From an uncultured archaeon (GTDB taxonomy: Archaea; Asgardarchaeota; Jordiarchaeia; Jordiarchaeales; Jordiarchaeaceae): DNA of 31,226 nucleotides. Where the stretch lies: contig CAZECW010000134.1 of NCBI GenBank assembly GCA_964510585.1, positions 1 to 31,226 on the forward strand, given 5' to 3'. The translations under genes and the position numbers were made by a program. This document shows positions 5,764 to 27,507 of the stretch, in pieces; position 1 is the first letter of the stretch, and each line of letters begins with the position of its first letter. Below the pieces are notes generated by a model, which did not search any database, was not told the DNA's origin, and saw only the letters and a list, made by a program, of their open reading frames with translations.

Positions 5764-6534
5764 CTAGTTATCTTCTTCTTTGGGTTGAGAGCATAAGATT
5801 GGTGGTCGCTTTTCTTTTTGGGAAGTTCCTAAGCGGAGTTGGAGCATTTTCCATATTTCATCACAGACCTCTTTGTTTTCGCAGTTTGTGCAATCGTAGG
5901 AGGGAGTTGATTTCACTGGAGTTGCTATCCTCCAAGCTTCTTGGGTTATTGTTCCGAGTTCTTTTACATCCTCGGTGCTAGAGGTTACAAATATTACCTC
6001 TACAGCTTCTGCTCTTGGAAGATTTTCTTTGAGGCTTAACATTAGTGCTCTTCCCAGCGTTTCTAGTGTGAAACCCTTTTCTACGGCTTCCCTGCTCACC
6101 CTACTCCACACTCTTTGATGCTGGGGAACCGCCCTCAACATGTAGCCTTCCAAATTTAGATTGTATTGGTTTCGGCTGAGGAGCCGATAATTCTTAGGTT
6201 CCAAATCTCTAGTTTGGGCTATGATAATTTGGGCGAATGGCAAGTTGCCTTTTGCCTCAGGAATGTCGGGTCCCACAATTGTTACTTTTCCATCTCTGAC
6301 CAGTTCTGGATTCTCGGTCCATAGGACAAGAGCTGCTGAGGCGGTTTTGGGATTTCCCAGCTCGACAAAGGTGTCTTCTTTAAGAATTATTCCCGGCTGC
6401 TTGCTTATTGGAAGGCCTTTTTTCAAATTTTTAACACTAGTGGGGCACTGTTTTTCACACACTTTTTTCCCCTGTTTTTTCCAGTTTTCTACGCGTTGTC
6501 TTAGCTCCTCTATCATTATATCGAATATTTCCAA
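5764..6534 (-). CDS. Truncated acetyl-CoA synthase (AcsB/CdhC) middle-domain paralog with C-terminal CxxC-x5-C
   Basis: VELGNPKT, DGKVTIVGPDI, LPFAQI, EGYM..VWSRVSREAVEKGFTLETLGRAL and AVEVIFVT match the ACS middle domain. It ends at YDCTNCENKEVCDEI and lacks the rest of the A-cluster domain. RBS GGAGGT; 24 bp after the activator gene. Confidence 0.75.
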   Translation of the reverse strand: MEIFDIMIEELRQRVENWKKQGKKVCEKQCPTSVKNLKKGLPISKQPGIILKEDTFVELGNPKTASAALVLWTENPELVRDGKVTIVGPDIPEAKGNLPFAQIIIAQTRDLEPKNYRLLSRNQYNLNLEGYMLRAVPQHQRVWSRVSREAVEKGFTLETLGRALMLSLKENLPRAEAVEVIFVTSSTEDVKELGTITQEAWRIATPVKSTPSYDCTNCENKEVCDEIWKMLQLRLGTSQKEKRPPILCSQPKEEDN

Positions 6535-6558
6535 TAGTTTACCTCCGGTTGAGATGTT

Positions 6559-7335
6559 CTAACCTGCTTTTTGCTTGGCTATTAATGCTGCTCCCAATGC
6601 TTGCACTATTTGGGGATCAAATTTTACTTTTTTGATTTCTACGCCAATTTTTTCCTCCAGAATTTTCACCATTGCTTGGTTTTTCGCCACCCCTCCTATG
6701 ATTACTACGTCTTCTATAACTCCCAATCTTCCCACTAGGGTGGCTGTTCTGAGGGCTATGGAGTTGTTAATTCCGCTTACAATGTTTGCGATTTCCGATC
6801 CCTCATTGACATAGGTTATAACCTCGCTCTCGGCGAAAACACTACACTGGCTGGTTATGTTTACGGGATGTGACCCTTGGAGTGAAGGAGAATCGAAATC
6901 GTCTGGATTAATTTCTAGGGCTTCAGCCATTATCTCCAGAAATCTTCCAGTTCCACTAGCGCACTTATCATTCATTACGTAGTCAATCACTCTTCCCTCC
7001 TTGTCGATTTGCGCTACCCTTGTGAAGAGTCCCCCCACATCAATCACTGTTCTTGCAGTGGGCAGAAGCCACAGTACCCCTACAGCTCCGCAACGGATAT
7101 CGCTTTCGGTCGCGTTAGCGAAGGGAATTCTTGCCGCACCCCAACCGCAGCCCACACAGTACTTCACATTGTCAATGGTGATTCCCGCATTTGATAGTGC
7201 TTGGTTCATTGCGTTTCTTGCGGATTGCTCTGCTTTAGCCTCTGTGGTCACTATGCTGTAGGCTAAAATCTGATCATTTTTTAATAGTACCGCCTTTGTG
7301 GTCAATGTTCCAACGTCACAGCCAGCAAAAATCAT
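6559..7335 (-). CDS. ASKHA-fold [4Fe-4S] activator subunit, divergent (BcrD/BzdP-like)
   Basis: GCDVGT, NDKCASGTGRF and SQCSVF are retained, but GCGWGA replaces STGYGR and DVGGLFTR replaces DxGGQDxK. The likely start is ATG 7335 (GGAGG upstream), not 7458. Confidence 0.9.
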   Translation of the reverse strand: MIFAGCDVGTLTTKAVLLKNDQILAYSIVTTEAKAEQSARNAMNQALSNAGITIDNVKYCVGCGWGAARIPFANATESDIRCGAVGVLWLLPTARTVIDVGGLFTRVAQIDKEGRVIDYVMNDKCASGTGRFLEIMAEALEINPDDFDSPSLQGSHPVNITSQCSVFAESEVITYVNEGSEIANIVSGINNSIALRTATLVGRLGVIEDVVIIGGVAKNQAMVKILEEKIGVEIKKVKFDPQIVQALGAALIAKQKAG

Positions 7336-7339
7336 TATT

Positions 7340-8134
7340 TTACTTCCTCCTCTGCTGTTTAAGGTAATTCTCTTTGGCGAAAAGCGCGGCTCCCAGAGCT
7401 CCCATAATCTGAGGATCTTGGGGAAATTCCACGGCTTTGAATCCGATAAGTTCCTCAAGGTTTTTTACTACTGCCACGTTTTTTGCAACTCCCCCAGTTA
7501 TTCCCAGATCTTTTTTGATTTCTATTCGATTTATTAGAGCGTAGACCCTTCGAGCCATAGCTTGATTTATTCCCGCTGCGATGTCCTCAATCTTTTTACC
7601 CTCATTGATTAGAACCATGGTCTCAAACTCGGTGAATACGCTACACTGACTTGTGATACTCACTGGATTCTCTGACTTCAAGGAAACTGGTCCTAGTTCC
7701 TCAATTGTTAAGCCAAGTGTCTTAGCCATCATTTCCAGGAATCTCCCGGTTCCCGCCGCACACTTTTCATTCATAACAAAGTTTTTTACTCGTCCCTGAT
7801 CATCCAAACAAATCACCTTACAATCCTGTCCTCCAACGTCCACCACGGTTCTTATACTTGGTACCAGCCAATGTGCCCCCTTACCGTGACATGAAATTTC
7901 ACTAACATTTTTCTGGGCGAAAGGAATTCTACCCCGCCCATAGCCGGTACTAACACAATATTCTATATCATCTATTCTGAGACCGGCCTTCTCAAGTGTT
8001 TTGTTCATCACATCGCTGGCCGACTGCTCCGGCCGGGGGCGTACCCGAATAATTTCATAAGCCAATATTCTATTATCTTCCATGATTACTGCTTCTGCCG
8101 TAAGTGAGCCCACATCACAACCAGCCACAATCAA
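7340..8134 (-). CDS. ATP-dependent [4Fe-4S] activator subunit, canonical (HgdC/BzdQ-like)
   Basis: GCDVGS, STGYGR, EISCHGKG, DVGGQDCK, NEKCAAGTGRF, SQCSVF, TGGVAKN, GALGAAL. Confidence 0.95.
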   Translation of the reverse strand: MIVAGCDVGSLTAEAVIMEDNRILAYEIIRVRPRPEQSASDVMNKTLEKAGLRIDDIEYCVSTGYGRGRIPFAQKNVSEISCHGKGAHWLVPSIRTVVDVGGQDCKVICLDDQGRVKNFVMNEKCAAGTGRFLEMMAKTLGLTIEELGPVSLKSENPVSITSQCSVFTEFETMVLINEGKKIEDIAAGINQAMARRVYALINRIEIKKDLGITGGVAKNVAVVKNLEELIGFKAVEFPQDPQIMGALGAALFAKENYLKQQRRK

Positions 8135-9519
8135 CTGTGACTCCTCCTTTTAGATTCCCGGACGGTTTTTATAAACTCCGCCAACTTGGCCTTAATATCT
8201 GCTATAGAAGTAAACCTTTTATCTGCAATATCCATATCAAACCGGAGCGAAGGAATTCCAGCCTCCTTTTTTAGAGCGTCACTCAGAAGCTTGTTTAAAG
8301 CCCAACTGTGCTTACAAGCCATGTGTCCCCCAAATATGGCGCAGTCCGCCTTATACTCCTTTGCCAACCATACAAAGTCATCTATCCAAGTATCAGCATA
8401 ACCCAAACCCTGGCGGTGCATAGGCCAATTGAAGGACCTCTCAGCAAGCCCTCTTATTATGCTATCAGGGCTTGAAGTTTCAATAGGCTGGGTGAAGAAC
8501 CAGTCGAGCGCGTCGAAGAGGTGCACTGCCCCCAGCTCCTCTTCCAACCACCCATAGAAAGAGAAATCGAAGAGTACTGGCACATTAGTCCAGAGAGTCC
8601 TTATCTCCTCCATACCTTCGGGTATCACACCTACCCCATTATCCACGTTTCTTTTCGCAAGATCTCTACACACTTTAAAGAAGGATATGCCTTCAGGTTG
8701 TCCCATACCTATGAGCATTACTCCCGCCGCGGCAATGTGGCTAAAGCTTGGATCTGGGCAAGGAACAGCCTTCCTCAACTCCAGAACTTCAAGGAAGTAC
8801 TCGTAGGCCTGGTTTGAACACTCAACAACCTCTCTGAGCCTCTCTGGATCCAGCTTCTGTCCCGTTACTTCATCAAGCCTCTTAACCATCTTTTTAAACT
8901 CTTTAGCATAATACTCGAAGCTTCTAGAGTCCATAGAGTAGGGAACATCTATGGGAATGAATTTTGCATCAGTCCTCTCGGCTATCCACTGGTAGGCCAT
9001 ATTGCTTGCATCACATGCACCTACGGGTTTAACTATAATGTCAGGCTTGGGAACCTTGCCCAAAAGAAGATATCCCATGGTCGCTTTTTGGGTGGAGCAT
9101 AGATGGCTGGGGAAACCCTCTGCTTCAATCCTATCGATAGCTTGCTCGCCTCCGTTTATCCATGTTAAAGCAGCCGCCACTGACTGGTATTCTACACATA
9201 TGGGTATCAAGTCCATGGCGTAGTAAATTTCGGGTGAGTGTGTGAAGAAAAAGTAGACAACCTTTTTTCCTTCCTCTAATCCTTTAACAACAATATTATT
9301 CCAGTATTTGTAGTTGCATTTCACCCACTGCTTTGCAATTTCCCTATGTTTAGGTCTAGTAAAATTAGCGAGTCCAATTTGAAGCATTCTCAAAACACTC
9401 ATTTCCTCTTCCGAAAGGGAACCTAGTGTCCTCTCTAGGTTATTGCTCTCTAGGAATTTTTCTTGTATTTTATAAGCTAACGCCATATGCCTTGCAAATT
9501 CTGTGCCAGTCTCATCCAT
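8131..9519 (-). CDS. 2-hydroxyacyl-CoA dehydratase / aryl-CoA reductase alpha-type subunit (HgdA/BcrB/BzdO-like), paralog 2
   Basis: Three cluster Cys (HLCSTQK, GACD, ACKH), IDVPY, LDPERLREVVE.SN, and C-terminal GIPSLRFDMDIAD. Confidence 0.9.
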   Translation of the reverse strand: MDETGTEFARHMALAYKIQEKFLESNNLERTLGSLSEEEMSVLRMLQIGLANFTRPKHREIAKQWVKCNYKYWNNIVVKGLEEGKKVVYFFFTHSPEIYYAMDLIPICVEYQSVAAALTWINGGEQAIDRIEAEGFPSHLCSTQKATMGYLLLGKVPKPDIIVKPVGACDASNMAYQWIAERTDAKFIPIDVPYSMDSRSFEYYAKEFKKMVKRLDEVTGQKLDPERLREVVECSNQAYEYFLEVLELRKAVPCPDPSFSHIAAAGVMLIGMGQPEGISFFKVCRDLAKRNVDNGVGVIPEGMEEIRTLWTNVPVLFDFSFYGWLEEELGAVHLFDALDWFFTQPIETSSPDSIIRGLAERSFNWPMHRQGLGYADTWIDDFVWLAKEYKADCAIFGGHMACKHSWALNKLLSDALKKEAGIPSLRFDMDIADKRFTSIADIKAKLAEFIKTVRESKRRSHS

Positions 9520-9577
9520 TTTTACAAACCTCCGATCCCCTCAAGAAAAGATTAAATCTCTCATTTACCTTAGAGTA

Positions 9578-10960
9578 TTAATGCCTTTTTCTTTCCCGAA
9601 CATTTTTTATGAACTCTGCAAATTTAGCCTTTATGTCCACTATGGATGTTACTCTTTTATCAGCTAAATCCATTTCAAAGCGTAGTGAGGGAATTCCTAC
9701 CTCTTTTTTAAGAGCGTCGCTTAGAAGTTTATTTATCCCCCAGCTGTGTTTACAAGCTGCATGTCCGGCGAATATAGCGCAGTCCGCCCTGTACTCTTTC
9801 GCAAGCCATACGAAATCGCTTATCCAGTCATCGGCAAATCCCATGGACTGGCGATGCATGGGCCAGTTGAAGGACCTCTCAGCGAGCCCTCTTATTATGC
9901 TATCAGTGGATGAAGTATCTATTGGTTGAGTGAAAAACCAATCCAGACAGTCAAATAGGTGTATTGCCCCCAGTTCCTCCTCAATCCAGTCAAAGAAGGG
10001 GAAGTCAAAGAGTATAGGTACATATATCCAGAGTGTCCTTATCTCCTCCATACCTTCGGGTATAACTCCCACCCCCTTCTCCACGTTTTTCTTCGCAGTG
10101 TCCCTACACGCCTTAAAGTAATCTATGGCTTCGGGACGCCCCAAGCTAGTCAGCATCGTTCCCGCTGATAGTAAATGACTGAGGCTGGGATCCGGGCAAG
10201 GAACCGCTTTTCTTAATTCCATATTTTCAAGGAAGTACTCGTAGGCCTGGTTTGAACACTCAACAACCTCTCTGAGCCTCTCTGGATCCAGCTTCTGTCC
10301 CGTTACCTCTTCAAGCCTGGCAATCATCTTCTTATATTCGTTTAGATAGTACTCAAAGGCATGGGAGTCTAAGGAGTAGGGTGTGTCCATAACGATGAAC
10401 TCCGCACCAGTTTTTTCCGCCATCCACTGGTAGGCCATGTTACTGGGGTCACATACTCCTACGGGTTTAACTATAATGTCTGGTTTTGGAACCTTATTCA
10501 TGAGTAGCCAGCCCATCGTTCCTTTCTGTGCCGAACAGAGGTGGCTTGGTAATCCCTCAGCTTCGATCCTGTCAATTCCATCTTCAGCTCCGTTAGTCCA
10601 CACCGCTGAGGCTAAAGCAGGCTGGTATTCTGCACATATGGGTATCAAGTCCATGGCGTAGTAAATTTCGGGTGAGTGAGTGAAATAGAAGTAGACAACC
10701 TTCTTTCCCTCCTCTAATCCTTTGAGAACAACATTATGCCAGTATTCATAGTTACATTTTATCCACTCCCTTACTATATCTTTAAGCTTGGGCTTAGGTA
10801 TCACCTCTGCCAAAGCTATCTGAAGTATTCCTAACAAACTTTGCTCTTCTGGTGTTAAGGTGGCTAGAGCCTGCGTTAAATCCTTAGCATCTATAAATTT
10901 GTTTGCTATACTGAAAGTTAGGGACATTAGCCTTGCATGTTCTTTTCCATTATTCCTCAT
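9578..10960 (-). CDS. 2-hydroxyacyl-CoA dehydratase / aryl-CoA reductase alpha-type subunit, paralog 1
   Basis: HLCSAQK, GVCD and ACKH; collinear and highly similar to 8131-9519 over its full length. Confidence 0.9.
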   Translation of the reverse strand: MRNNGKEHARLMSLTFSIANKFIDAKDLTQALATLTPEEQSLLGILQIALAEVIPKPKLKDIVREWIKCNYEYWHNVVLKGLEEGKKVVYFYFTHSPEIYYAMDLIPICAEYQPALASAVWTNGAEDGIDRIEAEGLPSHLCSAQKGTMGWLLMNKVPKPDIIVKPVGVCDPSNMAYQWMAEKTGAEFIVMDTPYSLDSHAFEYYLNEYKKMIARLEEVTGQKLDPERLREVVECSNQAYEYFLENMELRKAVPCPDPSLSHLLSAGTMLTSLGRPEAIDYFKACRDTAKKNVEKGVGVIPEGMEEIRTLWIYVPILFDFPFFDWIEEELGAIHLFDCLDWFFTQPIDTSSTDSIIRGLAERSFNWPMHRQSMGFADDWISDFVWLAKEYRADCAIFAGHAACKHSWGINKLLSDALKKEVGIPSLRFEMDLADKRVTSIVDIKAKFAEFIKNVRERKRH

Positions 10961-10963
10961 TTT

Positions 10964-12094
10964 TCACCCTCCTATTCTCTCCAGAAATGCTTGCACTCTG
11001 GTTCGGAACCTTCCAACATCGCTTATTAGATAGTCCCTCTCTAGTATCAATGTGGGAATGTTTTCCTCCTCCAATTCCTTGCTTATCATAACGTTGTCGA
11101 CACCATGTGGATCGCAGAAGGCAATCTTCTCAAATATTACCCCATCTACTCGGGCTTTTTCAGCCAATTCCCTCACAAAGCCCAATTTCTTGGGATACTC
11201 CCTCAACATACGTGGACAAGGATTATGATAATAGTAGCGCTTAGCTACAGCTTCCAAAGGGTCTCCCTCACCACTAACCAACCCCTTAAATTGCCTTGTT
11301 CCAAAACAGAGGGAATCGGTGACCACAAGTCCTCCCAAGTCCTCAATAATCTCAATTAAACTTGGTTGGTCAAGTTCGCTCCCTACAATCATTAGTCTCG
11401 CATCATAGTCTCTTATACCCCCTGAATTCTCTAGCTCTTTTAATAAACTAGCAAGCATAATGTTGAAATCTTCCCTCGGCATCGCTGAGGCAGCTGCAAC
11501 TATGCTGAGGCTCTGAGCTCCATTAATCGGTGGATTCTCCTTGGCTCTAAGGTTGTAAAGTTTTTCCAGGAGCTCACGGCTCTCGTTGTAAACATTTATT
11601 GATTCTCTGAGCTTCTCATCTGTTATCTTCACACCAAAGTGTTGCTCAATGTGCTCCTTAAATCTTTCAACTTCCTCCATATAAAATTTAAATCCATCTT
11701 CGGTGAGTACGTGCGGTACAGGCAAGAAGTGGTGGAACGGGATTTTAACTATCCTAACCCAGTTATCGTAAACCCTCCGTATGTGGTCACATCCGTTAAG
11801 GTAGCAGAATCCATCCAGAAAATCGTAGGCTCCCGTGATACCTAGTTCAAGGACAGCCCGGCAGAAGCTACAGTTAAACCTGCCCATATAAATGTCCGCA
11901 TTTGAGGTGCCAGTACAGGTTACTCCCCTTATTCTATAGGGCAATATGCCTGCAGCGTGGATTATTTCCTCTGGAGCATAAGTGCAAGTGTACCCAATAA
12001 TTTTCTTTCCCTGCTTCTTCCATTCATCAATGTAAGAGTTACGCAGAGTTGATGAAACCTCAACTAACTTATCTAAAATCTCCAAAAATCTCAC
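10964..12094 (-). CDS. 2-hydroxyacyl-CoA dehydratase / aryl-CoA reductase beta-type subunit (HgdB/BcrC/BzdN-like)
   Basis: KIIGYTCTYAPEEIIHAAGILP, NCSFC, NGCDHIRR, RLMIVGS, AFCDPH, GRFRTRVQAFLE. Confidence 0.92.
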   Translation of the reverse strand: MRFLEILDKLVEVSSTLRNSYIDEWKKQGKKIIGYTCTYAPEEIIHAAGILPYRIRGVTCTGTSNADIYMGRFNCSFCRAVLELGITGAYDFLDGFCYLNGCDHIRRVYDNWVRIVKIPFHHFLPVPHVLTEDGFKFYMEEVERFKEHIEQHFGVKITDEKLRESINVYNESRELLEKLYNLRAKENPPINGAQSLSIVAAASAMPREDFNIMLASLLKELENSGGIRDYDARLMIVGSELDQPSLIEIIEDLGGLVVTDSLCFGTRQFKGLVSGEGDPLEAVAKRYYYHNPCPRMLREYPKKLGFVRELAEKARVDGVIFEKIAFCDPHGVDNVMISKELEEENIPTLILERDYLISDVGRFRTRVQAFLERIGG

Positions 12095-12320
12095 CCAATT
12101 TTTAATTATTAAAGCCTAAGATTCCTTTATATGCCTTTATTTTCTATTATATTTTTCCAAAAAACTATTTCAGCTCATATATGTTGTAATCACTAATAGT
12201 TTCAAAATTAATAAAATTATAAAAGGAGAGCTTACTCTTAGTAGGGACTGAAACATATTTTCAACAAAAAAATAATCAAAGGATAATTTTTAGAGTTCAT
12301 TAAGGAGGCTAGTCGGCTGC

Positions 12321-13361
12321 ATGGATCGCTTGGAGAATGTTTTGCGGGCTATTGAATTTCTCTCCCCTGAATGTGTGCCTGTTTATCGCTTATCACTGAA
12401 TCCTGAGAATCCTTGGATTGAGAGTGATTTTATCGAGGTGCTCTATACTCACCCGAAAGGCTGGAAGCCGAGTCGGAAGGGAGAGGATGAATGGGGATGT
12501 GTCTGGGATAATCTTGGAGGCAAAACAATGGGAAACGTTGTTACCCCACCTATTACTTCTTGGGAGAAGTTGGAGGATTATGAGTTTCCCGATCCCTACT
12601 TGGAGGATAGGTTTACGGATCCTATTCCCTACAAGGTAGGAGATTTTTCATTTGAGATTCCAAGTGCTGAGCAACAAATTTCCACTTGGGCAGGGGATAG
12701 ATATGTCCTTGGCAGCTTGGAGATTACTCTATTTCAGCGTCTCCAGTTTCTTAGAGGAGCAGACACAATTCTTAAGGACATTTACTTGGAGAGGGAGATG
12801 GTGGAGGAGCTGGCGGATAGAGTAACAGATTTTTACTTGGGACTGATTGAAATGTGGAGTTCTCGTGGGGCCCACGGGGTAATTGCTTATGATGATTTTG
12901 GAACGCAGCAGGGATTATGGATGCGACCCCAGATTTGGAGGGAAATCTTCAAGCCCCGCTACTGGAAGATGGTTAAAGCCGCCCATAATAGGGGAATGCA
13001 TTTCTTCCTCCACAGCTGCGGATACATCTATGATATAATAGGTGATCTTGTTGAAATTGGGCTGGACGTCTTACAATTGGATCAGCCTGAACTTCTGGGC
13101 GTTGACCGGCTGGGAAGAGATTTTGGTGGTAAGATTTGCTTCTTCTGTGTGGTAGATATTCAAAAAACTCTCCAAACTGGAACTAGAGAACAGATAGAGG
13201 AAGCCGCAAAGCATATGATTAAGGTTCTGGGAAGCTTTGATGGAGGCTTTATGGGAAGAGCTTACCCGCAGCCAGAGGCAATAGATCTTAAACCTGAAAA
13301 CGTGGACACCATGATCAGAGCTTTTAGAAGGTATGGGAAATATCCGAGGAGAACTGTCTAA
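12321..13361 (+). CDS. Uroporphyrinogen-decarboxylase-fold protein (MtaA/CmuA MT2-type corrinoid methyltransferase-like)
   Basis: DEWGCVW, YDDFGTQQGLWMRPQIWREIFKP, Zn-type LHSCG, LVEIGLDVL, and G.FM..YP at the C-terminus. Confidence 0.85.
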   Translation: MDRLENVLRAIEFLSPECVPVYRLSLNPENPWIESDFIEVLYTHPKGWKPSRKGEDEWGCVWDNLGGKTMGNVVTPPITSWEKLEDYEFPDPYLEDRFTDPIPYKVGDFSFEIPSAEQQISTWAGDRYVLGSLEITLFQRLQFLRGADTILKDIYLEREMVEELADRVTDFYLGLIEMWSSRGAHGVIAYDDFGTQQGLWMRPQIWREIFKPRYWKMVKAAHNRGMHFFLHSCGYIYDIIGDLVEIGLDVLQLDQPELLGVDRLGRDFGGKICFFCVVDIQKTLQTGTREQIEEAAKHMIKVLGSFDGGFMGRAYPQPEAIDLKPENVDTMIRAFRRYGKYPRRTV

Positions 13362-14128
13362 ACTTTAAGTTTTTCAAATATTTTCTTTACAGCTTTTAGG
13401 CTTGGTGCACTACTTGGAATTTCAGTTATGGGCTTCCCAAGTGTGTCTAGTTTTGTGATGTTTTCGTCTTCTGGCACGGTGCCGAGTACCTTCAGCTGGA
13501 GTTCCTCCGCCCGCCTTTTTATTTCCACTATTTCATCTGGGCTTCTTACCCTATTGATTATGAGCCCTGTTTCCCTGTGATGTGTGTATTTGGCGGCCGT
13601 TTCCCTAATTGCGTTTGCGGTTTGGAGGCCCCTTAGTGTAGGGTCGGTTACAATTAGTAGTGTTTTCACGGATCTAACCACTTTTCTGTTTATTTGTTCA
13701 AGTCCCGCCTCACAGTCAACGAGAGTTACATCAAAGTTTTTTGATAGGGTTTCAATTGCGTCTCTAAGTAGGGTGTTTGCTGGGCAGAAGCAGCCAGGGC
13801 TGTCTGGAGTGCCCATAGCTAGGAGATTAAACCCTTTATCCTCAACCAGAGCCTCAAGAAGGTAGTAATCAAGTGAATCCACTATCTCCCCCTTTTCATC
13901 CTCGTCTCCCTCACTTGCAACTTTTATAACGTTTTTCCTAAGGTCTTCTAGTGTCCGCTCTACTCTGAGTCCAAGTATTCGCGCAAGATGAGATGTTGAG
14001 GGATCTCCATCGATAAGGAGCAGACGAAGTCTGGGAACATTTTTGAGGACAATCGCCATGAGGGCTGTGATAACAGTTTTGCCTGCTCCTCCCTTACCAG
14101 CCACAGCAATTATAGAAGAATCGGTCAA
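13358..14128 (-). CDS. cooC: CooC/AcsF-type nickel-insertion ATPase (MinD/SIMIBI family)
   Basis: Deviant Walker A GKGGAGKT, IDGDP, Ni-binding GCFCP (CxC), VDCEAGLEQ. TTG start with GGAGG. Its stop overlaps the convergent gene's stop (13358-13361). Confidence 0.88.
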   Translation of the reverse strand: MTDSSIIAVAGKGGAGKTVITALMAIVLKNVPRLRLLLIDGDPSTSHLARILGLRVERTLEDLRKNVIKVASEGDEDEKGEIVDSLDYYLLEALVEDKGFNLLAMGTPDSPGCFCPANTLLRDAIETLSKNFDVTLVDCEAGLEQINRKVVRSVKTLLIVTDPTLRGLQTANAIRETAAKYTHHRETGLIINRVRSPDEIVEIKRRAEELQLKVLGTVPEDENITKLDTLGKPITEIPSSAPSLKAVKKIFEKLKV

Positions 14129-14278
14129 CGATAAACCTCCAAACTAAGCCCACCAACATTAGTCAATTAACAGTATTAAAAATTTATAACTTAAATGTTC
14201 CCCGATAACTGGATAGAAGCATTTTTATGGTATTGATTGTATATTTTAACCAACTTTTGAATATTTGGAGGTTCAAGT

Positions 14279-15991
14279 TTGAGTGGAGAGAAGGAGCCGC
14301 TATTTGAAGTTGTATTCGATTTTGAGAATCCCAGTCCTTGGGTTCGCCCAAATCGCCCCTGGGAGAAATGGTACCGAGAAGCTACCTATGAGGGAAGAAA
14401 GATAAACATTCCTCGAACCATTAAGTATCCTGAAATACCTATACATTATTTTGGAAGGGACGCTGCGGAGAATTATCCCAACAATGTGGCCGTCTACTAT
14501 ACTCCTCAGGAAAAGAAGTACACTTACCGTGAACTAATGTACTACAGTGACAAAATCTCTGCGGCGCTGGCAGACCTTGGAGTGGAGAAGAACTCTTCTG
14601 TTGCAGTATTTATGGCAAACACTCCCGAATTCGTATTCTCCCTTTATGGAATCACTCAGACAGGGGGAGCAGTGACACCCATAAACCCCCTACTTAAGGC
14701 CCCAGACATAGCCCACATTGTAAGAGACAGTGGAATAATAGATACACTCATCTGTACCTCTAACCTCTACCCAGTGGTTGAGAAAACACGGGAGGAGGTG
14801 GAACTGGAAAACGTAATAGTGGTGGGCGACAAGATACCAGGAACCATAAACTTTGCAGAGATGATTGAGAAGTATCCCCCCAAACCCCCAGACGTCACAA
14901 TAAACCCAAAGGAGGATGTTTGCGCACTAATGTACAGTGGAGGAACCACGGGACTACCAAAGGGAGTGATGCTCACCCACTATAACATAGTGGCAGACGT
15001 AATAGCTAGTGCCCATACACAGTGGGGAGATGACAGATCCGGAGCTGGTAAAGGAACAGTTATTGCCGTTCTGCCAATGTGCCACGTCTTCGGATTTACT
15101 ATGGTTCAGAGCTATGTGTATGCAAAATCCATGATGATAATGTATGCGGGATTCGACCCCGAAGTGGTAATGAGGGATATTGAAAAGTATAAAAGTGAGG
15201 CGTTTCTGGGAATTCCACTCATGTATTTTGTTTTGGTAAACCATCCAAGCTTTGGAAAGTACGATCTCTCCTCATTAAAGCTAGCAATATCCGGCGCAGA
15301 TACTCTGCAGACTGTGATTTCAGAAAAGTGGAAAAAGGTCACAAACGTCGATGTAGGTCAGGGGTATGGTCTCTCCGAGGCAAGCCCAGTGACCCACAGC
15401 CAACCTCCATGGCTGCCAAAAATAGGAAACAGCATAGGGATACCAATAATAGATACCGACGCAAAAATTGTGGATCTTGAAACTGGAACACAGGAACTAC
15501 CGCCGGGAGAGATAGGTGAACTTATGGTCAGAGGACCACAGGTGATGAAGGGCTACTGGAAGCAGCCCGAAAAGACAAAGGAAACAGTAACTGAGGATGG
15601 ATGGCTTCACACTGGAGACCTGGCCCGAATGGATGAGAATGGCTACTTCTACATAATGGGGCGATTCAAAGACATAATCAAGTATAAGGGTTACAAGGTT
15701 ATGCCCGACGATGTAGAAAACGAATTGTTAAAACATCCCGCAATACTGCAATGTGTGGTAATCGGTGTTCCAGACCCAAAAATTGGAGAAAACATTAAGG
15801 CCTTTGTGGTGCTTAAAGATGAGTACAAGGGAAAAATTAGTGAACAGGAGATCATTGATTGGGCGAAGGAAAACATGGCAGGGTACAAGTGGCCCAGAAA
15901 AGTAGAGTTCATTGATGCAATTCCCAGAACCGCGGTGGGAAAGGTGTTCAGAAGAAAACTGAGGGAAATGGAGCTTGCGAAAAAGGCCTAA
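14279..15991 (+). CDS. Acyl/aryl-CoA ligase (AMP-forming, long-chain-fatty-acid--CoA ligase family)
   Basis: YSGGTTGLPKG, GQGYGLSE, GWLHTGD, GRFKDIIK, PRTAVGK. Confidence 0.95.
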   Translation: MSGEKEPLFEVVFDFENPSPWVRPNRPWEKWYREATYEGRKINIPRTIKYPEIPIHYFGRDAAENYPNNVAVYYTPQEKKYTYRELMYYSDKISAALADLGVEKNSSVAVFMANTPEFVFSLYGITQTGGAVTPINPLLKAPDIAHIVRDSGIIDTLICTSNLYPVVEKTREEVELENVIVVGDKIPGTINFAEMIEKYPPKPPDVTINPKEDVCALMYSGGTTGLPKGVMLTHYNIVADVIASAHTQWGDDRSGAGKGTVIAVLPMCHVFGFTMVQSYVYAKSMMIMYAGFDPEVVMRDIEKYKSEAFLGIPLMYFVLVNHPSFGKYDLSSLKLAISGADTLQTVISEKWKKVTNVDVGQGYGLSEASPVTHSQPPWLPKIGNSIGIPIIDTDAKIVDLETGTQELPPGEIGELMVRGPQVMKGYWKQPEKTKETVTEDGWLHTGDLARMDENGYFYIMGRFKDIIKYKGYKVMPDDVENELLKHPAILQCVVIGVPDPKIGENIKAFVVLKDEYKGKISEQEIIDWAKENMAGYKWPRKVEFIDAIPRTAVGKVFRRKLREMELAKKA

Positions 15992-16208
15992 AAACACCAA
16001 TCCTGAAAAATCAAAGAACACACAGAAAATCGATTAACCAACCATAAACACTTTCCTTTTTACCCAACCCACTCGCTTCTACTCAGTTATATTGAAAAAA
16101 AGGTTTATAGAATCGTAAAACTGGGCTCTAATGGGGGGAATGTTTCCCGCTTTTGGCAGAGAGGATTGCACAGACGAAGGAACGTATGGAAGGCGTATCC
16201 GAATCAAC

Positions 16209-16228
16209 CGCATAATTTAAACTATGCG
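16209..16228. promoter_or_regulatory. Near-perfect 20-bp palindrome centred on TTTAAA upstream of the crotonase
   Basis: CGCATA-ATTTAAAC-TATGCG. Confidence 0.4.
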
Positions 16229-16303
16229 AAAAACATATATCGTATTTGGAATCGAATGGGAGGAAACGCGCTTATTTAAAATGTTTACCGGAGGAAATAC
16301 GGC

Positions 16304-17098
16304 ATGAATTATGAGTGTTTAATTCTTGAGAAAAACGAAGAAAAAGGAATAGCGAAAATAACTCTAAATCGACCGGAAGCTATGAATAGCTGGAATTACC
16401 AGCTGGCAAAGGAATTCTTGGAAGCTGTGAGGAGCCTAGAAGATAACCGCAAGATTAGGGTTCTGATTATTACTGGTTCTGGTGGAACATTCTCCACTGG
16501 TGCAGACCTAAAATTTGTGAGGTCTCTACTTGATGAGGGCTTAGAGAAGGGATGGGAAATGATTACCACCCTAAATGAAGCCTTCAGCAACTGTGAAAAA
16601 ACCAGATTGCCCGTAATTGCCGCGGTAAACGGTTTCGCCCTAGCCGGAGGCTTGGAACTCATTCTCTGCTGCGACATAGTGTTAATGGCGGACAACGCCA
16701 GAATAGGAGACTACCACTCCAACTTCGGCCTAATACCGGGCGGAGGAGGCTCTCAACGTTTGCCCAGAAAAATAGGAGACCAAAACGCAAAATATCTACT
16801 ATTTACTGGAAGATGGGTTTCAGCCGAAGAAGCCAAAGCCATGGGCCTAGTCCACCAAGTAGTGCCAGCCGACAAACTCATGGAAGAAGCCGAGAAACTA
16901 GCCATGAGAATCGCGGAAAAAAATCCCGGCGGCATAAAATACATGAAGTACCTGGCAAACAAAAGCAGAGACCTACCACTAGAAGAAGGCTTAAAACTGG
17001 AACAAGAAATCTTCATGAAATTTGCAGTGGAAGAGAGAGAAAACCTCATTGAGGGGTTAACCGCCTTCATGGAAAAGAGGAAACCAGTTTTCAAATAA
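16304..17098 (+). CDS. Enoyl-CoA hydratase/isomerase (crotonase) family protein
   Basis: LNRPEAMNS, FSTGADL, AAVNGFALAGGLEL, FGLIPGGGGSQRL, AFMEKRKPVF; GGAGG RBS. Confidence 0.95.
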   Translation: MNYECLILEKNEEKGIAKITLNRPEAMNSWNYQLAKEFLEAVRSLEDNRKIRVLIITGSGGTFSTGADLKFVRSLLDEGLEKGWEMITTLNEAFSNCEKTRLPVIAAVNGFALAGGLELILCCDIVLMADNARIGDYHSNFGLIPGGGGSQRLPRKIGDQNAKYLLFTGRWVSAEEAKAMGLVHQVVPADKLMEEAEKLAMRIAEKNPGGIKYMKYLANKSRDLPLEEGLKLEQEIFMKFAVEERENLIEGLTAFMEKRKPVFK

Positions 17099-23571: not shown

Positions 23572-24771
23572 GTGAGAGGTGAGTTCTTGAGCGCATTCAT
23601 TATTGGAGTTGGATTAACTCAGATTAAATCGCACTGGGATGCGGATTCAGCCACACTGGCGCACAAAGCTATAATGGAAGCTCTCAGAGATGCTAACCTT
23701 GAACCAAGAGACATAGAAGGAATTATAACCACGCCTCAAGGATACTTTACCGACGCTAAAGATATTGATCGGTTTGCCCCCCAGAGGATGGGGGAGTACC
23801 TAAACATAGATGCTAGGGTGCAGGTCGCGGTTGACATTGGTGGGATGAGCAGCCTAGCCGCAGTAAAGTATGGGGTCTACGAAGTATTACTGGAGAAATG
23901 TAGAACTCTTTTAATTTATGCATCGGAAAAACTTGTGGCTCGTGAAGATTTTAATATTTCACGCCACATGTACCTCACATACCTCGTTAATGGACTCTTT
24001 GGACCCTATGATAGCAGGTATGGGGTAACTAGAGCCGTTCCCTACTATGCTATGGCTACCCAGAGGTACATGTATGAATATAATGTTAATAAGGAAGATA
24101 TAGCCCACTTACCGGTTGTCTTGAGGGAAAACGCTTCCTTAAACCCTAGGGCGCAGTTCCGGGAACCAATAACAGTTGAAGATGTGCTCAACTCTAAACC
24201 CGTGTGTCCCCCACTAAACCTTCTTGAGTGTTGCCCAGTTTCTGAAGGAGGAGCAGCAATTATCATTTCAGACCAGAGTACAGCTAGAGATTTGGGAAGG
24301 GATGATTGTTACATTGCGGGGATAGGGGAGGCACATGATCCCACGAGTTTTTTCCCAGTTTACCAATCGGTCACCGAAATTCCTTCTCTGAGGAGAGCCA
24401 CACAAGAAGCTTTGAGACAAGCCCAAGTGGATTTAAAGGACGTAGATGTTGCAGAAGTTTATGGTCCATTTAGCGGTACAGAACTAATGGTTTATGAAGA
24501 ACTGGGTTTTTATGAGAGAGGAAAGGCGGCGGAAGCGGTGGTTGAGGGACGCACAAGAATAGGCGGAGACACTCCCATAAATCCTTCGGGGGGAAGACTC
24601 TCCTTGGGTCACCCGCCCTACGTAACTCCCCTTGCTGAAATATATGAAATAGTGACCCAGCTGAGAGGAGAGGCAGGAAGGAGACAAGTTCAAGATGCAG
24701 AAATTGGACTGGTACACGCTGAACATGGGATGATGAATGGAAATATGGTGGCAGTAATAAAGAGGAGGTAG
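23572..24771 (+). CDS. Thiolase-fold protein lacking the catalytic Cys (SCP-x/Ltp2-like)
   Basis: NPRAQF, PLNLLECCPVSEGGAAII, DVAEVYGPF, PINPSGGRLSLGHP. The position of xACASG reads DIGGMSS. Confidence 0.85.
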   Translation: MRGEFLSAFIIGVGLTQIKSHWDADSATLAHKAIMEALRDANLEPRDIEGIITTPQGYFTDAKDIDRFAPQRMGEYLNIDARVQVAVDIGGMSSLAAVKYGVYEVLLEKCRTLLIYASEKLVAREDFNISRHMYLTYLVNGLFGPYDSRYGVTRAVPYYAMATQRYMYEYNVNKEDIAHLPVVLRENASLNPRAQFREPITVEDVLNSKPVCPPLNLLECCPVSEGGAAIIISDQSTARDLGRDDCYIAGIGEAHDPTSFFPVYQSVTEIPSLRRATQEALRQAQVDLKDVDVAEVYGPFSGTELMVYEELGFYERGKAAEAVVEGRTRIGGDTPINPSGGRLSLGHPPYVTPLAEIYEIVTQLRGEAGRRQVQDAEIGLVHAEHGMMNGNMVAVIKRR

Positions 24772-24776
24772 AAGGA

Positions 24777-25136
24777 GTGGAGAGATTCTTCCAAGAACTG
24801 CAAAACAGGAAATTTAAAGTTCCAAAATGTAAAAACTGTGAAAGACACATATATCCGCCAAGAGATTTTTGTCCCTTCTGCAGCTCCAAAAACCTGGAAT
24901 GGGTTGAAATAAGTGGGGAAGGAACACTATACGCCTACACAATAAATGCGGGAGGAATACAATTTCGCAACGAAACCATAGGAATAGTGGAATTAAAAGA
25001 AGGATTCAAAATCCTAACATACATAGGAAAACCAATCCAAGAACTAAAAATCGGACAACCAGTAAAACTTGAATACACAGAAATAGAAACCCAAGAGGGA
25101 AAATTAACACTCCACAAATTTACACCACAAAACTAA
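24777..25136 (+). CDS. DUF35-family Zn-ribbon/OB-fold protein
   Basis: KCKNC..IYPPRDFCPFC, EWVEISGEGTLYAYT, GIVELKEG, LKIGQPV; 5 bp after the thiolase-fold gene. Confidence 0.92.
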   Translation: MERFFQELQNRKFKVPKCKNCERHIYPPRDFCPFCSSKNLEWVEISGEGTLYAYTINAGGIQFRNETIGIVELKEGFKILTYIGKPIQELKIGQPVKLEYTEIETQEGKLTLHKFTPQN

Positions 25137-26556: not shown

Positions 26557-26904
26557 AATTTTTGGCCTCCTTTTATTTTTCTGGGTAAAAAATGAATGCT
26601 TATTTCGTGGTTTTGTGGGGGGCTATCGCTTTTCCCTAATTTATTGTGTTCTAATTTGGAATATATTTTTTTGGTTTGCTCTTTTGCATAATTTTATTGG
26701 TTTCTAATATTTTTTATCTATAAATTTAAAAATTTGTTTTATAAATTGGGATGAAATGCTGAATATTTTATATATAAATAATGTTAAAAACGAAGATTTG
26801 TGCAAAAATGGTTTTAGCCAAAAAATTTAAAATTATTCTTCCTTCTAAAAAATTTTCATAGGGGACTAGCAGTTTTTAAAGCTTCTTTGAAGGAGGGATT
26901 ACAA

Positions 26905-27507
26905 ATGAGTGCGGATGCCGCAGACCCTGGCCAAATGCCTAAACAGTCTCACTTACTTTATGAGACAATTATACAGGATTATCGCACTATTATTGGGGAT
27001 GAATTTGACGAAAGTTTTGTGGCGGTTCTGGAGCAGCTGTCAACTGATTTCGAAACCACTGAGGAGAAGATTGGTGCAGAGACAAACATGCCTTTCAAGG
27101 AGATTAGAAAGATTTTGTACAAATTGTATGATTCACGCATAGCAACTTATCGAATGGTTCGAGACCCCAATACTGGATACATTATATTTCTTTGGAAGTT
27201 GCTCCCCCTAAAGTGCAGTTTTGCAACATTCAGGCATAAAGCAATGCTTGCAATTAAAAGCTTAGAAGAAAGAATCGAATATGAGAAAAACAATACATTC
27301 TATCATTGTGGACTGAAAACGTGTCAGAAGCTCACCTTCGACCAGGCCATGGAAGCGGAGTTTAAATGTCCAACATGTACAAAACCACTACAACCGGTAA
27401 ACAACGAAGAAACAATAAATATGCTGAGAAACAAAATTCGGGAGCTACAAAAGGATATAGAAACCATTTCCAAAAGCCTCTCGGAGAACGAAAACACCAT
27501 TTCCTAA
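26905..27507 (+). CDS. tfe: Transcription factor E (TFE/TFIIE-alpha homolog)
   Basis: Winged helix TEEKIG..IRKILYKLYDSRIATY..RDPNTGYIIFLW and Zn ribbon C-x4-C..TFDQAMEAEFKCPTC..PL. ATG 26905 is preferred over TTG 26887 (GGAGGG RBS). Confidence 0.9.
   Translation: MSADAADPGQMPKQSHLLYETIIQDYRTIIGDEFDESFVAVLEQLSTDFETTEEKIGAETNMPFKEIRKILYKLYDSRIATYRMVRDPNTGYIIFLWKLLPLKCSFATFRHKAMLAIKSLEERIEYEKNNTFYHCGLKTCQKLTFDQAMEAEFKCPTCTKPLQPVNNEETINMLRNKIRELQKDIETISKSLSENENTIS

Follow-up and report, generated by a model that had tools for sequence, protein, structure and literature searches.

The window analyzed here, a 31,226-nt stretch of contig CAZECW010000134.1 (assembly GCA_964510585.1), derives from an uncultured Asgard archaeon of the Jordarchaeia. 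Between positions 5764 and 17098 it carries genes for an ATP-driven enzyme of the benzoyl-coenzyme A (CoA) reductase (BCR) and 2-hydroxyacyl-CoA dehydratase (HAD) family, together with a fragment of acetyl-CoA synthase (ACS), which we call mini-ACS, and a CooC-type ATPase. We consider it somewhat more likely than not, at roughly 55%, that this is the Jordarchaeia copy of a widespread module in which a Bzd-type ATP-driven reductase for a CoA ester is joined by an accessory protein that binds CoA, bears a metal and is matured by CooC. Direct observations cover the gene content of the module, its family assignments and cysteine patterns, and its conserved synteny; from them we infer that the chemistry is that of a reductase rather than of a dehydratase, that CooC acts on mini-ACS, and that mini-ACS is physically associated with the reductase. 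The substrate is probably not benzoyl-CoA. Genes for a uroporphyrinogen decarboxylase (URO-D)-like protein, an acyl-CoA ligase and a crotonase, which also lie in this region, are lineage-specific neighbors.

Organization of the locus

The reductase and mini-ACS genes form one tight operon of six genes, running from 12094 to 5764 on the minus strand with intergenic gaps of -4 to 58 nt and encoding one beta subunit, two alpha subunits, two BcrAD-type ATPases and mini-ACS. The seventh gene of the module, that of the CooC-type ATPase, stands apart from it:

10964..12094, minus strand: BzdN-like beta subunit of the HGD-D/BCR family, 376 aa (Pfam HGD-D, 336 bits)
9578..10960, minus strand: alpha subunit A, HGD-D protein of putative catalytic type, 460 aa (Pfam HGD-D, 207 bits)
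8131..9519, minus strand: alpha subunit B, HGD-D protein, 462 aa, paralogue of alpha A
7340..8134, minus strand: ATPase 1, BcrAD/HgdC-type electron-activating ATPase, 264 aa (Pfam BcrAD_BadFG, 206 bits)
6559..7338, minus strand: ATPase 2, BcrAD_BadFG protein, 259 aa counted from the ATG at 7338 (longest open reading frame (ORF) 6559-7458; TIGR00241, 216 bits)
5764..6534, minus strand: mini-ACS, middle domain of CdhC/ACS only, 256 aa (Pfam CdhC, 68 bits, residues 50-186)
13358..14128, minus strand: CooC/AcsF-type P-loop ATPase (CbiA/MinD-type), 256 aa (aligned with CooC1, 3kje)

Beyond the operon, the genes for the URO-D-like protein (plus), CooC (minus), the ligase (plus) and the crotonase (plus) are separate units; the URO-D-like and CooC genes are convergent with a 4-nt overlap, and the ligase gene is divergent from that of CooC. 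All ten genes had been proposed in a sequence-only reading of this DNA, and each was recovered in place with its family assignment upheld (ORFs, Pfam, NCBIfam); the four transcription directions described there also correspond to the actual arrangement. A TFIIE-alpha gene at 26887-27507 marks the window as archaeal, and the best matches of both the mini-ACS and the URO-D-like proteins come from Candidatus Jordarchaeum and Jordarchaeia metagenome-assembled genomes (MAGs). The host genome measures 3.8 Mb and is 96% complete. DNA of the window is present in hot-spring metagenomes (eight DNA datasets, no RNA dataset among them).

Conservation of the module across phyla

We collected 84 mini-ACS loci, four from context look-ups on metagenomic and genomic contigs and 80 from species-representative genomes, and scored them by tblastn with the window proteins combined with all-against-all clustering of ORFs; 61 loci with at least 4.5 kb of upstream sequence and 78 with at least 1 kb of downstream sequence were assessable on the respective side. 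Two or more HGD-D genes on the same strand are found upstream of mini-ACS in 55 of 61 loci, an ATPase gene likewise in 55 of 61, and in 57 of 78 the next gene downstream, on the same strand, encodes a CooC-like protein. In the four look-ups, mini-ACS is situated behind HGD-D beta and alpha genes in every case (4/4), BcrAD ATPases are encoded in three of the four contexts, and a gene for a CbiA/NifH-like ATPase or a URO-D protein comes next in three of four. Based on the upstream and downstream frequencies, the linkage of reductase, mini-ACS and CooC is real and recurrent across phyla. A synteny comparison had been suggested in the sequence-only reading, and its outcome is divided: the seven module genes occur together far beyond chance, the URO-D-like, ligase and crotonase genes do not. 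The pairing noticed there of an ACS-derived protein with a nickel-chaperone-type CooC beside reductase genes is thereby a recurrent association in the 84 loci.

The carriers are mostly Dehalococcoidia, with further representatives among Thermodesulfobacteriota, Binatia, one Methanobacteriota MAG and Jordarchaeia. In a second Jordarchaeia MAG (locus L011) the whole gene order is kept at 80-95% identity gene for gene, and because of this closeness we do not count it as independent evidence. Apart from HGD-D, ATPase and CooC, no family is conserved in more than 16 of the 84 loci. The next most common neighbors encode short-chain dehydrogenases/reductases (SDR; 16 loci), acyl-CoA dehydrogenases (14), thiolase-like proteins with DUF35 partners (about 10), ADP-forming CoA synthetases (8) and GMC oxidoreductases (8). 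Since so few flanking families recur, the core would be fixed, and its periphery would represent CoA-ester metabolism that varies from locus to locus.

Just 7 of the 61 assessable loci encode a second ATPase; the other 54 do not. In the mini-ACS tree, the two-ATPase loci cluster with Jordarchaeia in a well-supported clade (100/99). Rooted on an ACS outgroup, this tree has a root branch of 3.6 units, too long to tell which way the genes would have moved between archaea and bacteria. Loci L053 and L055 have identical mini-ACS genes and come from two MAGs of one study placed in different phyla (Binatia and Krumholzibacteriia), which would be explained by duplicated binning more readily than by transfer.

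Some loci have aminotransferase, racemase and SDR genes as neighbors. At 23572-25136, a distance of 11 kb from the operon, the window itself encodes a thiolase-like protein (Thiolase_C_1) and a DUF35 partner of the ChsH2 type (zinc-ribbon/OB). Homologous thiolase-like/DUF35 pairs, often accompanied by an acyl-CoA dehydrogenase gene, immediately precede the module in about 10 Dehalococcoidia loci (e.g., L057, L061, L062, L067, and L075), a possible sign, in this clade, of a feeder route resembling beta-oxidation.

No account of an ACS fragment paired with CooC in BCR-like operons turned up in the full-text literature, including PMC5736913, PMC9723677, PMC10134865, 10.1101/2025.09.14.676152 and PMC11971306, a search that did not extend to subscription journals. 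The isoprene reductase operon of Acetobacterium (PMC10134865) was considered as a relative and ruled out by its HypA/HypB genes and unrelated oxidoreductase.

Beta and alpha subunits

Of the three HGD-D genes, one encodes the beta subunit and two encode alpha subunits that are 72% identical to each other. The beta subunit gives its best NCBIfam matches to double_cubane (216 bits) and bzdN (207 bits), both under the respective cut-off, and its best solved relative is BzdN (8s02_B, 209 bits), with which it aligns over the full length and shares the cysteine columns. Across 75 family members, six cysteines (C37, C75, C102, C263, C293 and C327) show 95-100% conservation. Ligation of an [8Fe-9S] double cubane by six cysteines is known from BzdN and the double-cubane cluster protein (DCCP), whereas in the beta subunit of dehydratases no more than a [4Fe-5S] remnant is left (Fuchs et al., 2025, PMC11971306). 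The window beta subunit thus probably carries a double-cubane [8Fe-9S] electron-storage cluster, as judged from its cysteine pattern.

The alpha subunits are very divergent and show weak sequence matches, reaching 39-54 bits with HadB (39 for alpha A, 53.6 at best) and 33 bits with BzdO. The AlphaFold2 model of alpha A (pLDDT 86.8) was compared with solved structures by Foldseek; by query TM-score it fits HadB (TM-scores 0.75/0.85) and BzdO/MbdO (0.74-0.75/0.77-0.79) equally well, at 17-19% identity, and DCCP less closely (0.67-0.70), the identities overall being 17-20%. Among the alpha proteins, C142 and C170 are invariant and the third cysteine is found at C394 (62%) or C403 (37%). When aligned with BzdO, the first of the cysteines falls on Cys95 and the second lies one residue off Cys128; the catalytic Glu65 of BzdO is outside the alignable region. 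These features are consistent with a subunit of the catalytic type bearing a three-cysteine [4Fe-4S] site.

The two ATPases

ATPase 1 scores 271 bits with TIGR00241 (cut-off 125) and has the canonical motifs, including the conserved cysteines C125 and C164 and the DxGGQ motif. ATPase 2 is a divergent partner, 50% identical to ATPase 1, in which both cysteines are kept (C126 and C165) and three positions differ from the consensus of the family: T63C, R67A and Q103L (DVGGL vs. DxGGQ). Its start is most likely the ATG at 7338, where the conserved N-terminus begins; the TTG at 7458 is disfavored because it would create a 119-nt overlap with the upstream ATPase 1 gene. By analogy, the asymmetry of the two proteins recalls the ATPase heterodimers of BCRs.

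Mini-ACS and the CooC-type ATPase

We determined that mini-ACS consists of the A2 (CoA-binding) domain of ACS followed by a CxxCx5C tail. Its AlphaFold2 model has a pLDDT of 85.8, low only in the cysteine tail, and the top 23 Foldseek matches in PDB are all ACS/CdhC structures, aligned over about 175 columns (E-values 1.9e-13 to 7.1e-8). In the profile alignment, C215 and C218 fall on C506 and C509 of the Moorella enzyme, and W143 and R145 on W427 and R429; C215, C218, C224 and W143 are invariant in 67 mini-ACS sequences. A fourth cysteine is C30 or, in the archaeal clade, one near the C-terminus. In the ACS of C. autoethanogenum, acetyl-CoA is bound mainly on A2, with the adenine stacked on Trp405 (10.1101/2024.08.05.606187), and W143 would be the equivalent of this residue if the numbering offset between two alignments is applied.

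The protein ends 38 residues past the equivalents of Cys506/Cys509 and has neither an A3 domain nor a Cys-Gly-Cys nickel site; as it stops before any Cys-Gly-Cys, the Ni-Ni site of ACS is impossible in mini-ACS. It scores 68-71 bits with the ACS equivalogs, for which the cut-offs are 356-809 bits. The true CdhC of the host, encoded on contig 58, has the canonical CxxCx8Cx9C motif. The mini-ACS gene starts with TTG, 24 nt after ATPase 2 and six bases behind a GGAGGT ribosome-binding site. Proteins of its family are about 260 residues long. Matches fell into 177 clusters at 90% identity, at least 224 representative clusters at 50% identity have E-values of 1e-30 or lower, and among the 150 best listed relatives the intact ones measure 230-310 aa, none being longer and the few shorter ones being fragments.

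The best solved relative of the CooC-type ATPase is CooC1 (3kje), with residues 7-255 aligned to 3-250 and the CxC motif in register. Both the P-loop (GKGGxGKT) and the G-C113-x-C115-P motif are invariant in 39 family members. Four other CooC-like genes occur in the host genome at 30-34% identity, one of them near the true CdhC gene on contig 58, and from these comparisons the protein appears to be a distinct paralogue dedicated to the module. Modeling of a CooC dimer in complex with mini-ACS gave a median score of 0.38 (runs 0.62, 0.21, and 0.38; best control 0.01), with at least 58% of contacts shared between runs and a partner pLDDT of at least 73. Of 80 solved complexes, 58 attained the mark set for such predictions, as did 2 of 110 mismatched pairs; at values up to 0.60, it was attained by both mismatches and by just 7 of the solved complexes. 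The predicted complex is therefore weak support for contact between the two proteins.

Relation to known enzymes and a putative mechanism

The module would work like a Bzd-type class I BCR, yet its proteins fall outside several BCR, HAD and DCCP families as these are delimited by sequence. It shares with Bzd-type enzymes the BzdN-like six-cysteine subunit, an O-like subunit with a three-cysteine [4Fe-4S] site and two different BcrAD-type ATPases, but differs in that the alpha subunit is only 17-19% identical and has no counterpart of His131, equivalog cut-offs are missed, Dch and Oah are absent, and there are two alpha paralogues. Moreover, its conserved partners mini-ACS and CooC are not part of any described BCR. 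(R)-2-Hydroxyisocaproyl-CoA dehydratase (HadBC with HadI; PDB 3O3M) provides the best sequence and fold match of the window alpha, and in HadB a CoA thioester is likewise acted on at an open [4Fe-4S] iron. In contrast, HadC has no double cubane where the window beta has six cysteines, HadI is a homodimer of one gene product, and no ACS-like or CooC partner accompanies these proteins. DCCP and its reductase DCCP-R (PDB 6ENO, 7YYL) represent the best NCBIfam match of beta, with a six-cysteine [8Fe-9S] cluster and an ATP-driven reductase partner; in the DCCP homodimer, however, each of the two identical subunits holds a double cubane and a catalytic subunit that binds CoA is absent, whereas the window set is heteromeric.

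As for ACS (AcsB with domains A1-A3, CdhC with A2-A3) and its partner AcsF (Gregg et al., 2016, PMC5000062), mini-ACS shares the A2 homology, the start of the A-cluster motif and a CxC ATPase partner. It differs by lacking A3 and Cys-Gly-Cys, by its CxxCx5C motif and by its company: no CO dehydrogenase (CODH), corrinoid iron-sulfur protein or methyltransferase is conserved alongside, and it travels with HGD-D reductases instead.

By reference to these systems, we propose that the two BcrAD-type ATPases would share one [4Fe-4S] cluster, with ATP lowering the potential of the electron passed on, and that the BzdN-like beta subunit would store electrons on its double-cubane [8Fe-9S] cluster. The three-cysteine [4Fe-4S] cluster of alpha would then present one open iron towards the CoA-thioester substrate, and the two alpha paralogues would probably pair alternately with the single beta subunit, widening the substrate range. 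By analogy with AcsF and ACS, loading or repair of a metal site on the cysteine tail of mini-ACS is the most likely task of the CooC-type ATPase, and mini-ACS would serve as a CoA-ester-handling or electron-entry subunit of the reductase. A reductase-type enzyme is favored because of the six-cysteine pattern of beta and the presence of two different ATPase genes.

Counterevidence and alternative explanations

Several observations weigh against this interpretation. None of the window proteins reaches the NCBIfam equivalog cut-offs for BCR, HAD or DCCP subunits: the scores are 207 (cut-off 454), 26-30 (449) and 158-234 (380) bits for the BCR models TIGR03190, TIGR03191 and TIGR03192, 66-79 (750) and 200 (700) bits for HadB and HadC, and, for the DCCP model NF040772 (350), 216 bits for beta and 56-68 bits for the alphas. 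The alpha subunit is only 17-20% identical to any solved relative, and the position of BzdO His131 is occupied by Ala or Ser, as in HadB; since this acid/base residue, which in BzdO stands next to the water bound to the cluster, is missing, alpha might catalyze something other than a Birch-type reduction. In most bacterial loci there is one ATPase gene only, as for dehydratase activators and DCCP-R. The need for CooC would be unexplained as well, because the clusters of BzdNO assemble in E. coli without such helpers (PMC11971306). A six-member mini-ACS clade has no adjacent CooC gene, and the weakness of the modeled CooC/mini-ACS complex counts on the same side.

The last of these points concerns Ca. 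Jordarchaeum madagascariense. On a 4.2-kb contig of this MAG (L013:144-3082), the genes for CooC (plus), the URO-D-like protein (minus) and mini-ACS (plus) are contiguous, with none of the five reductase genes between them, and encode proteins 71-82% identical to those of the window. The closest beta homologue in the MAG is only 46% identical and another beta paralogue 39%; the host genome of the window has beta paralogues of its own, at 46% and 37%, on contigs 53 and 90. In the intergenic DNA next to the URO-D-like gene, the alignment of L013 with the window fades after about 180 bp. With no reductase genes between them and so distant a beta homologue in the MAG, the mini-ACS/CooC pair may not depend strictly on this reductase; either an orthologous operon was missed by the incomplete assembly or the pair outlives loss of the reductase.

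Among the alternatives, the one that survives best, though we regard it as unlikely, is that the operon encodes a radical enzyme of the 2-hydroxyacyl-CoA dehydratase type from amino-acid or hydroxy-acid fermentation, its ATPases being a catalytic activator only and mini-ACS and CooC being helpers. HadB as the best match of alpha in both sequence and fold, the histidine missing from alpha and HadB alike, the single ATPase gene of most bacterial loci and the aminotransferase, racemase and SDR genes near some of them are all in line with this. Against it, beta retains all six double-cubane cysteines, which dehydratases have lost (PMC11971306), the ATPase here is an asymmetric two-gene product as in BCRs, the scores with HadB and HadC stay at 79 and 200 bits when 750 and 700 are required, and no CoA-transferase typical of such fermentations is encoded within the window.

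It is less probable still that mini-ACS and CooC are not catalytic partners but assemble or repair the unusual iron-sulfur clusters found in these reductases, for example [8Fe-9S]. CooC belongs to the MinD/Mrp-type P-loop family, which includes Fe-S carriers, mini-ACS keeps only the cubane-binding cysteines, and the pair always trails the structural genes. However, BzdNO and DCCP obtain their clusters without such proteins (PMC11971306), an invariant A2 domain with its CoA-contacting Trp and Arg would be needless in an Fe-S carrier, and CxC is the nickel/zinc site of CooC1, not the CxxC motif of Fe-S carriers.

More speculatively, and with odds that we consider low, mini-ACS could constitute a new catalytic metallocenter, in which a [4Fe-4S] cluster on the CxxCx5C tail would be bridged through the Cys509-equivalent to nickel delivered by CooC. 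Super-reduced by the reductase, such a center might perform ACS-like organometallic chemistry on an acyl-CoA thioester, for example reductive cleavage of C-S or C-C bonds, decarbonylation, or the carbonylation of larger acyl groups. If true, the ACS scaffold would have a second use, independent of CODH, in bacteria as well as in Asgard archaea.

The arrangement might also be a matter of local gene order only, with the mini-ACS/CooC pair of Jordarchaeia working alone or with another enzyme and the reductase operon inserted beside it, which seems to us quite improbable. The three contiguous genes of Ca. J. madagascariense argue for it, as do the merely 46% and 39% identical beta paralogues of that MAG, the same paralogues being found on contigs 53 and 90 of the window's genome. 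On the other hand, that contig spans just 4.2 kb of an incomplete MAG, bacterial mini-ACS genes are almost never found away from HGD-D genes (55/61), and the mini-ACS gene of the window begins 24 nt behind ATPase 2 within one operon, preceded by a ribosome-binding site of its own.

URO-D-like, ligase and crotonase neighbors

The three genes that adjoin the module in the window are:

12321..13361, plus strand: URO-D-family protein, 346 aa (Pfam URO-D, 50 bits, weak and partial)
14279..15991, plus strand: AMP-forming acyl-CoA ligase (AMP-binding), 570 aa (from matches to solved relatives)
16304..17098, plus strand: generic crotonase/enoyl-CoA hydratase, 264 aa (ECH_1, 228 bits)

The MT2 methyltransferase label given to the URO-D-like protein in the sequence-only reading could not be established, as it scores 47.6 bits with the MtaA/CmuA model TIGR01463 (cut-off 235.4); no PDB sequence matches it at an E-value of 0.01 or lower. 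It has in common with MtaA/CmuA and the methyltransferases of O-demethylase systems the URO-D signature, an H-x-C motif and relatives encoded near a corrinoid protein, RACo and MtrH, and differs from them in its sub-threshold score and in the absence of a corrinoid protein from the window, the latter noted correctly before. H231-x-C233 is invariant in a large orphan URO-D subfamily, and the position of the third zinc-ligand cysteine reads Ala/Tyr (comparison by eye with the URO-D protein of locus L003).

The URO-D-like gene adjoins the module only in three closely related Jordarchaeia. Outside these, its closest relatives (79%, 72%, and 51% identity) are located in loci away from the module, and a 46%-identical planctomycete relative is found among sugar-catabolic genes. 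The loci of the closest relatives (L091, L092, and L093, Jordarchaeia-like) contain three to four URO-D paralogues and genes for a 100-aa protein, a B12-binding protein, RACo and MtrH, as well as GH1/GH3/GH94 glycosidases and sugar ABC transporters; they are candidate demethylase systems for methylated sugars. Elsewhere in the host genome there are 16 corrinoid-domain matches and about 10 URO-D paralogues, a repertoire that fits the methyl-transfer metabolism described for Jordarchaeia (PMC9723677). The protein is thus a probable corrinoid-dependent methyltransferase of an orphan subfamily, as far as its sequence tells, and most simply lies there by happenstance; we regard the gene as a chance neighbor because its nearest relatives sit in corrinoid/RACo/MtrH/glycosidase loci.

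Two points leave a small doubt by keeping a non-chance link alive, namely the contiguity in Ca. J. madagascariense and the adjacency in two bacterial loci of the CooC-less clade, where a gene of another, unrelated URO-D subfamily (25% identity) directly follows mini-ACS. In these loci, L003 (10001-11840) and L083 (9992-11831), it encodes a full-length MtaA-like URO-D protein with HxC and GCE motifs and starts 4 nt after mini-ACS. By a rough estimate on assumptions of our own (5-10 URO-D genes per genome of about 3000 genes, four neighbor positions and about 40 independent lineages), about 0.5 such adjacencies are expected by chance, so two independent ones are not significant. Members of the same clade (L003, L064, L077, and L089) also encode GMC-type flavoproteins near mini-ACS.

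The best solved relatives of the ligase are A. fulgidus FadD-1 (3g7s, 320 bits) and, next, plant 4-coumarate-CoA ligases (264-271 bits), with both groups about equally near. It is one of about 21 full-length AMP-ligases in the host genome, and a ligase of this kind is found near the module in 6 of the 84 loci; the crotonase is one of 23 family matches in the genome, with counterparts near the module in two bacterial loci. With so many ligases and crotonases in the genome, their adjacency carries little weight. The window crotonase scores 63 bits with Dch (cut-off 292.5) and 57 bits with Oah (cut-off 464), and neither enzyme was found anywhere in the 96%-complete genome, where the best scores are 97 bits for Dch and 118 bits for Oah; the absence of dch and oah noted for the window therefore holds genome-wide. 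The repertoire of the host for CoA esters and methyl transfer is very large and includes five CooC-like ATPases.

The sequence-only reading had joined all these genes in one pathway, in which the URO-D-like protein removes the methyl group from an aromatic acid (methoxylated or methylated), the ligase forms the CoA ester of this acid, the reductase dearomatizes the ring and the crotonase hydrates the product, or in which mini-ACS methylates or carbonylates a CoA ester. The parts do lie within 11 kb, their order is kept in L011, URO-D genes of another subfamily follow mini-ACS in L003 and L083, 4-coumarate-CoA ligases come second among the solved relatives of the ligase, and the 16 corrinoid-protein matches could serve a methyltransferase. 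Nevertheless, of all the explanations weighed here we hold this coupled route to be the least probable: L011 is 80-95% identical and not independent, the URO-D relatives at 79% and 72% identity are in corrinoid/RACo/MtrH/glycosidase loci without the module, the URO-D-like, ligase and crotonase genes are missing from nearly all of the 80 loci, Dch and Oah are absent from the genome, mini-ACS has no nickel-binding Cys-Gly-Cys for methylation or carbonylation, and the URO-D-like and CooC genes are convergent while the ligase is encoded on the strand opposite to the operon. The caution expressed in that reading, that the linkage may be partly coincidental, was right, as the three neighbors are not conserved.

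Significance

The chemistry of the ATP-driven enzymes of the BCR/HAD family ranks among the most reducing known in biology. To our knowledge, only a handful of reactions are attributed to these enzymes, namely arene reduction, 2-hydroxyacyl-CoA dehydration and plasmalogen formation. On the strength of its sequence features, we read the module as an undescribed, new reductase clade of Bzd architecture for a CoA ester, and not as a BCR. This clade of at least 224 clusters (at 50% identity) is abundant in subsurface Dehalococcoidia, is now seen in Asgard archaea, and has recruited an ACS fragment and a nickel-chaperone-type ATPase. Labels such as 'CO dehydrogenase/acetyl-CoA synthase beta subunit' and 'benzoyl-CoA reductase' on these genes inflate the Wood-Ljungdahl and aromatic-degradation potential of metagenomes. 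The role of mini-ACS and CooC could reveal a cofactor-maturation route, a mode of CoA-ester handling or a nickel-iron-sulfur reaction, each of which would be new.

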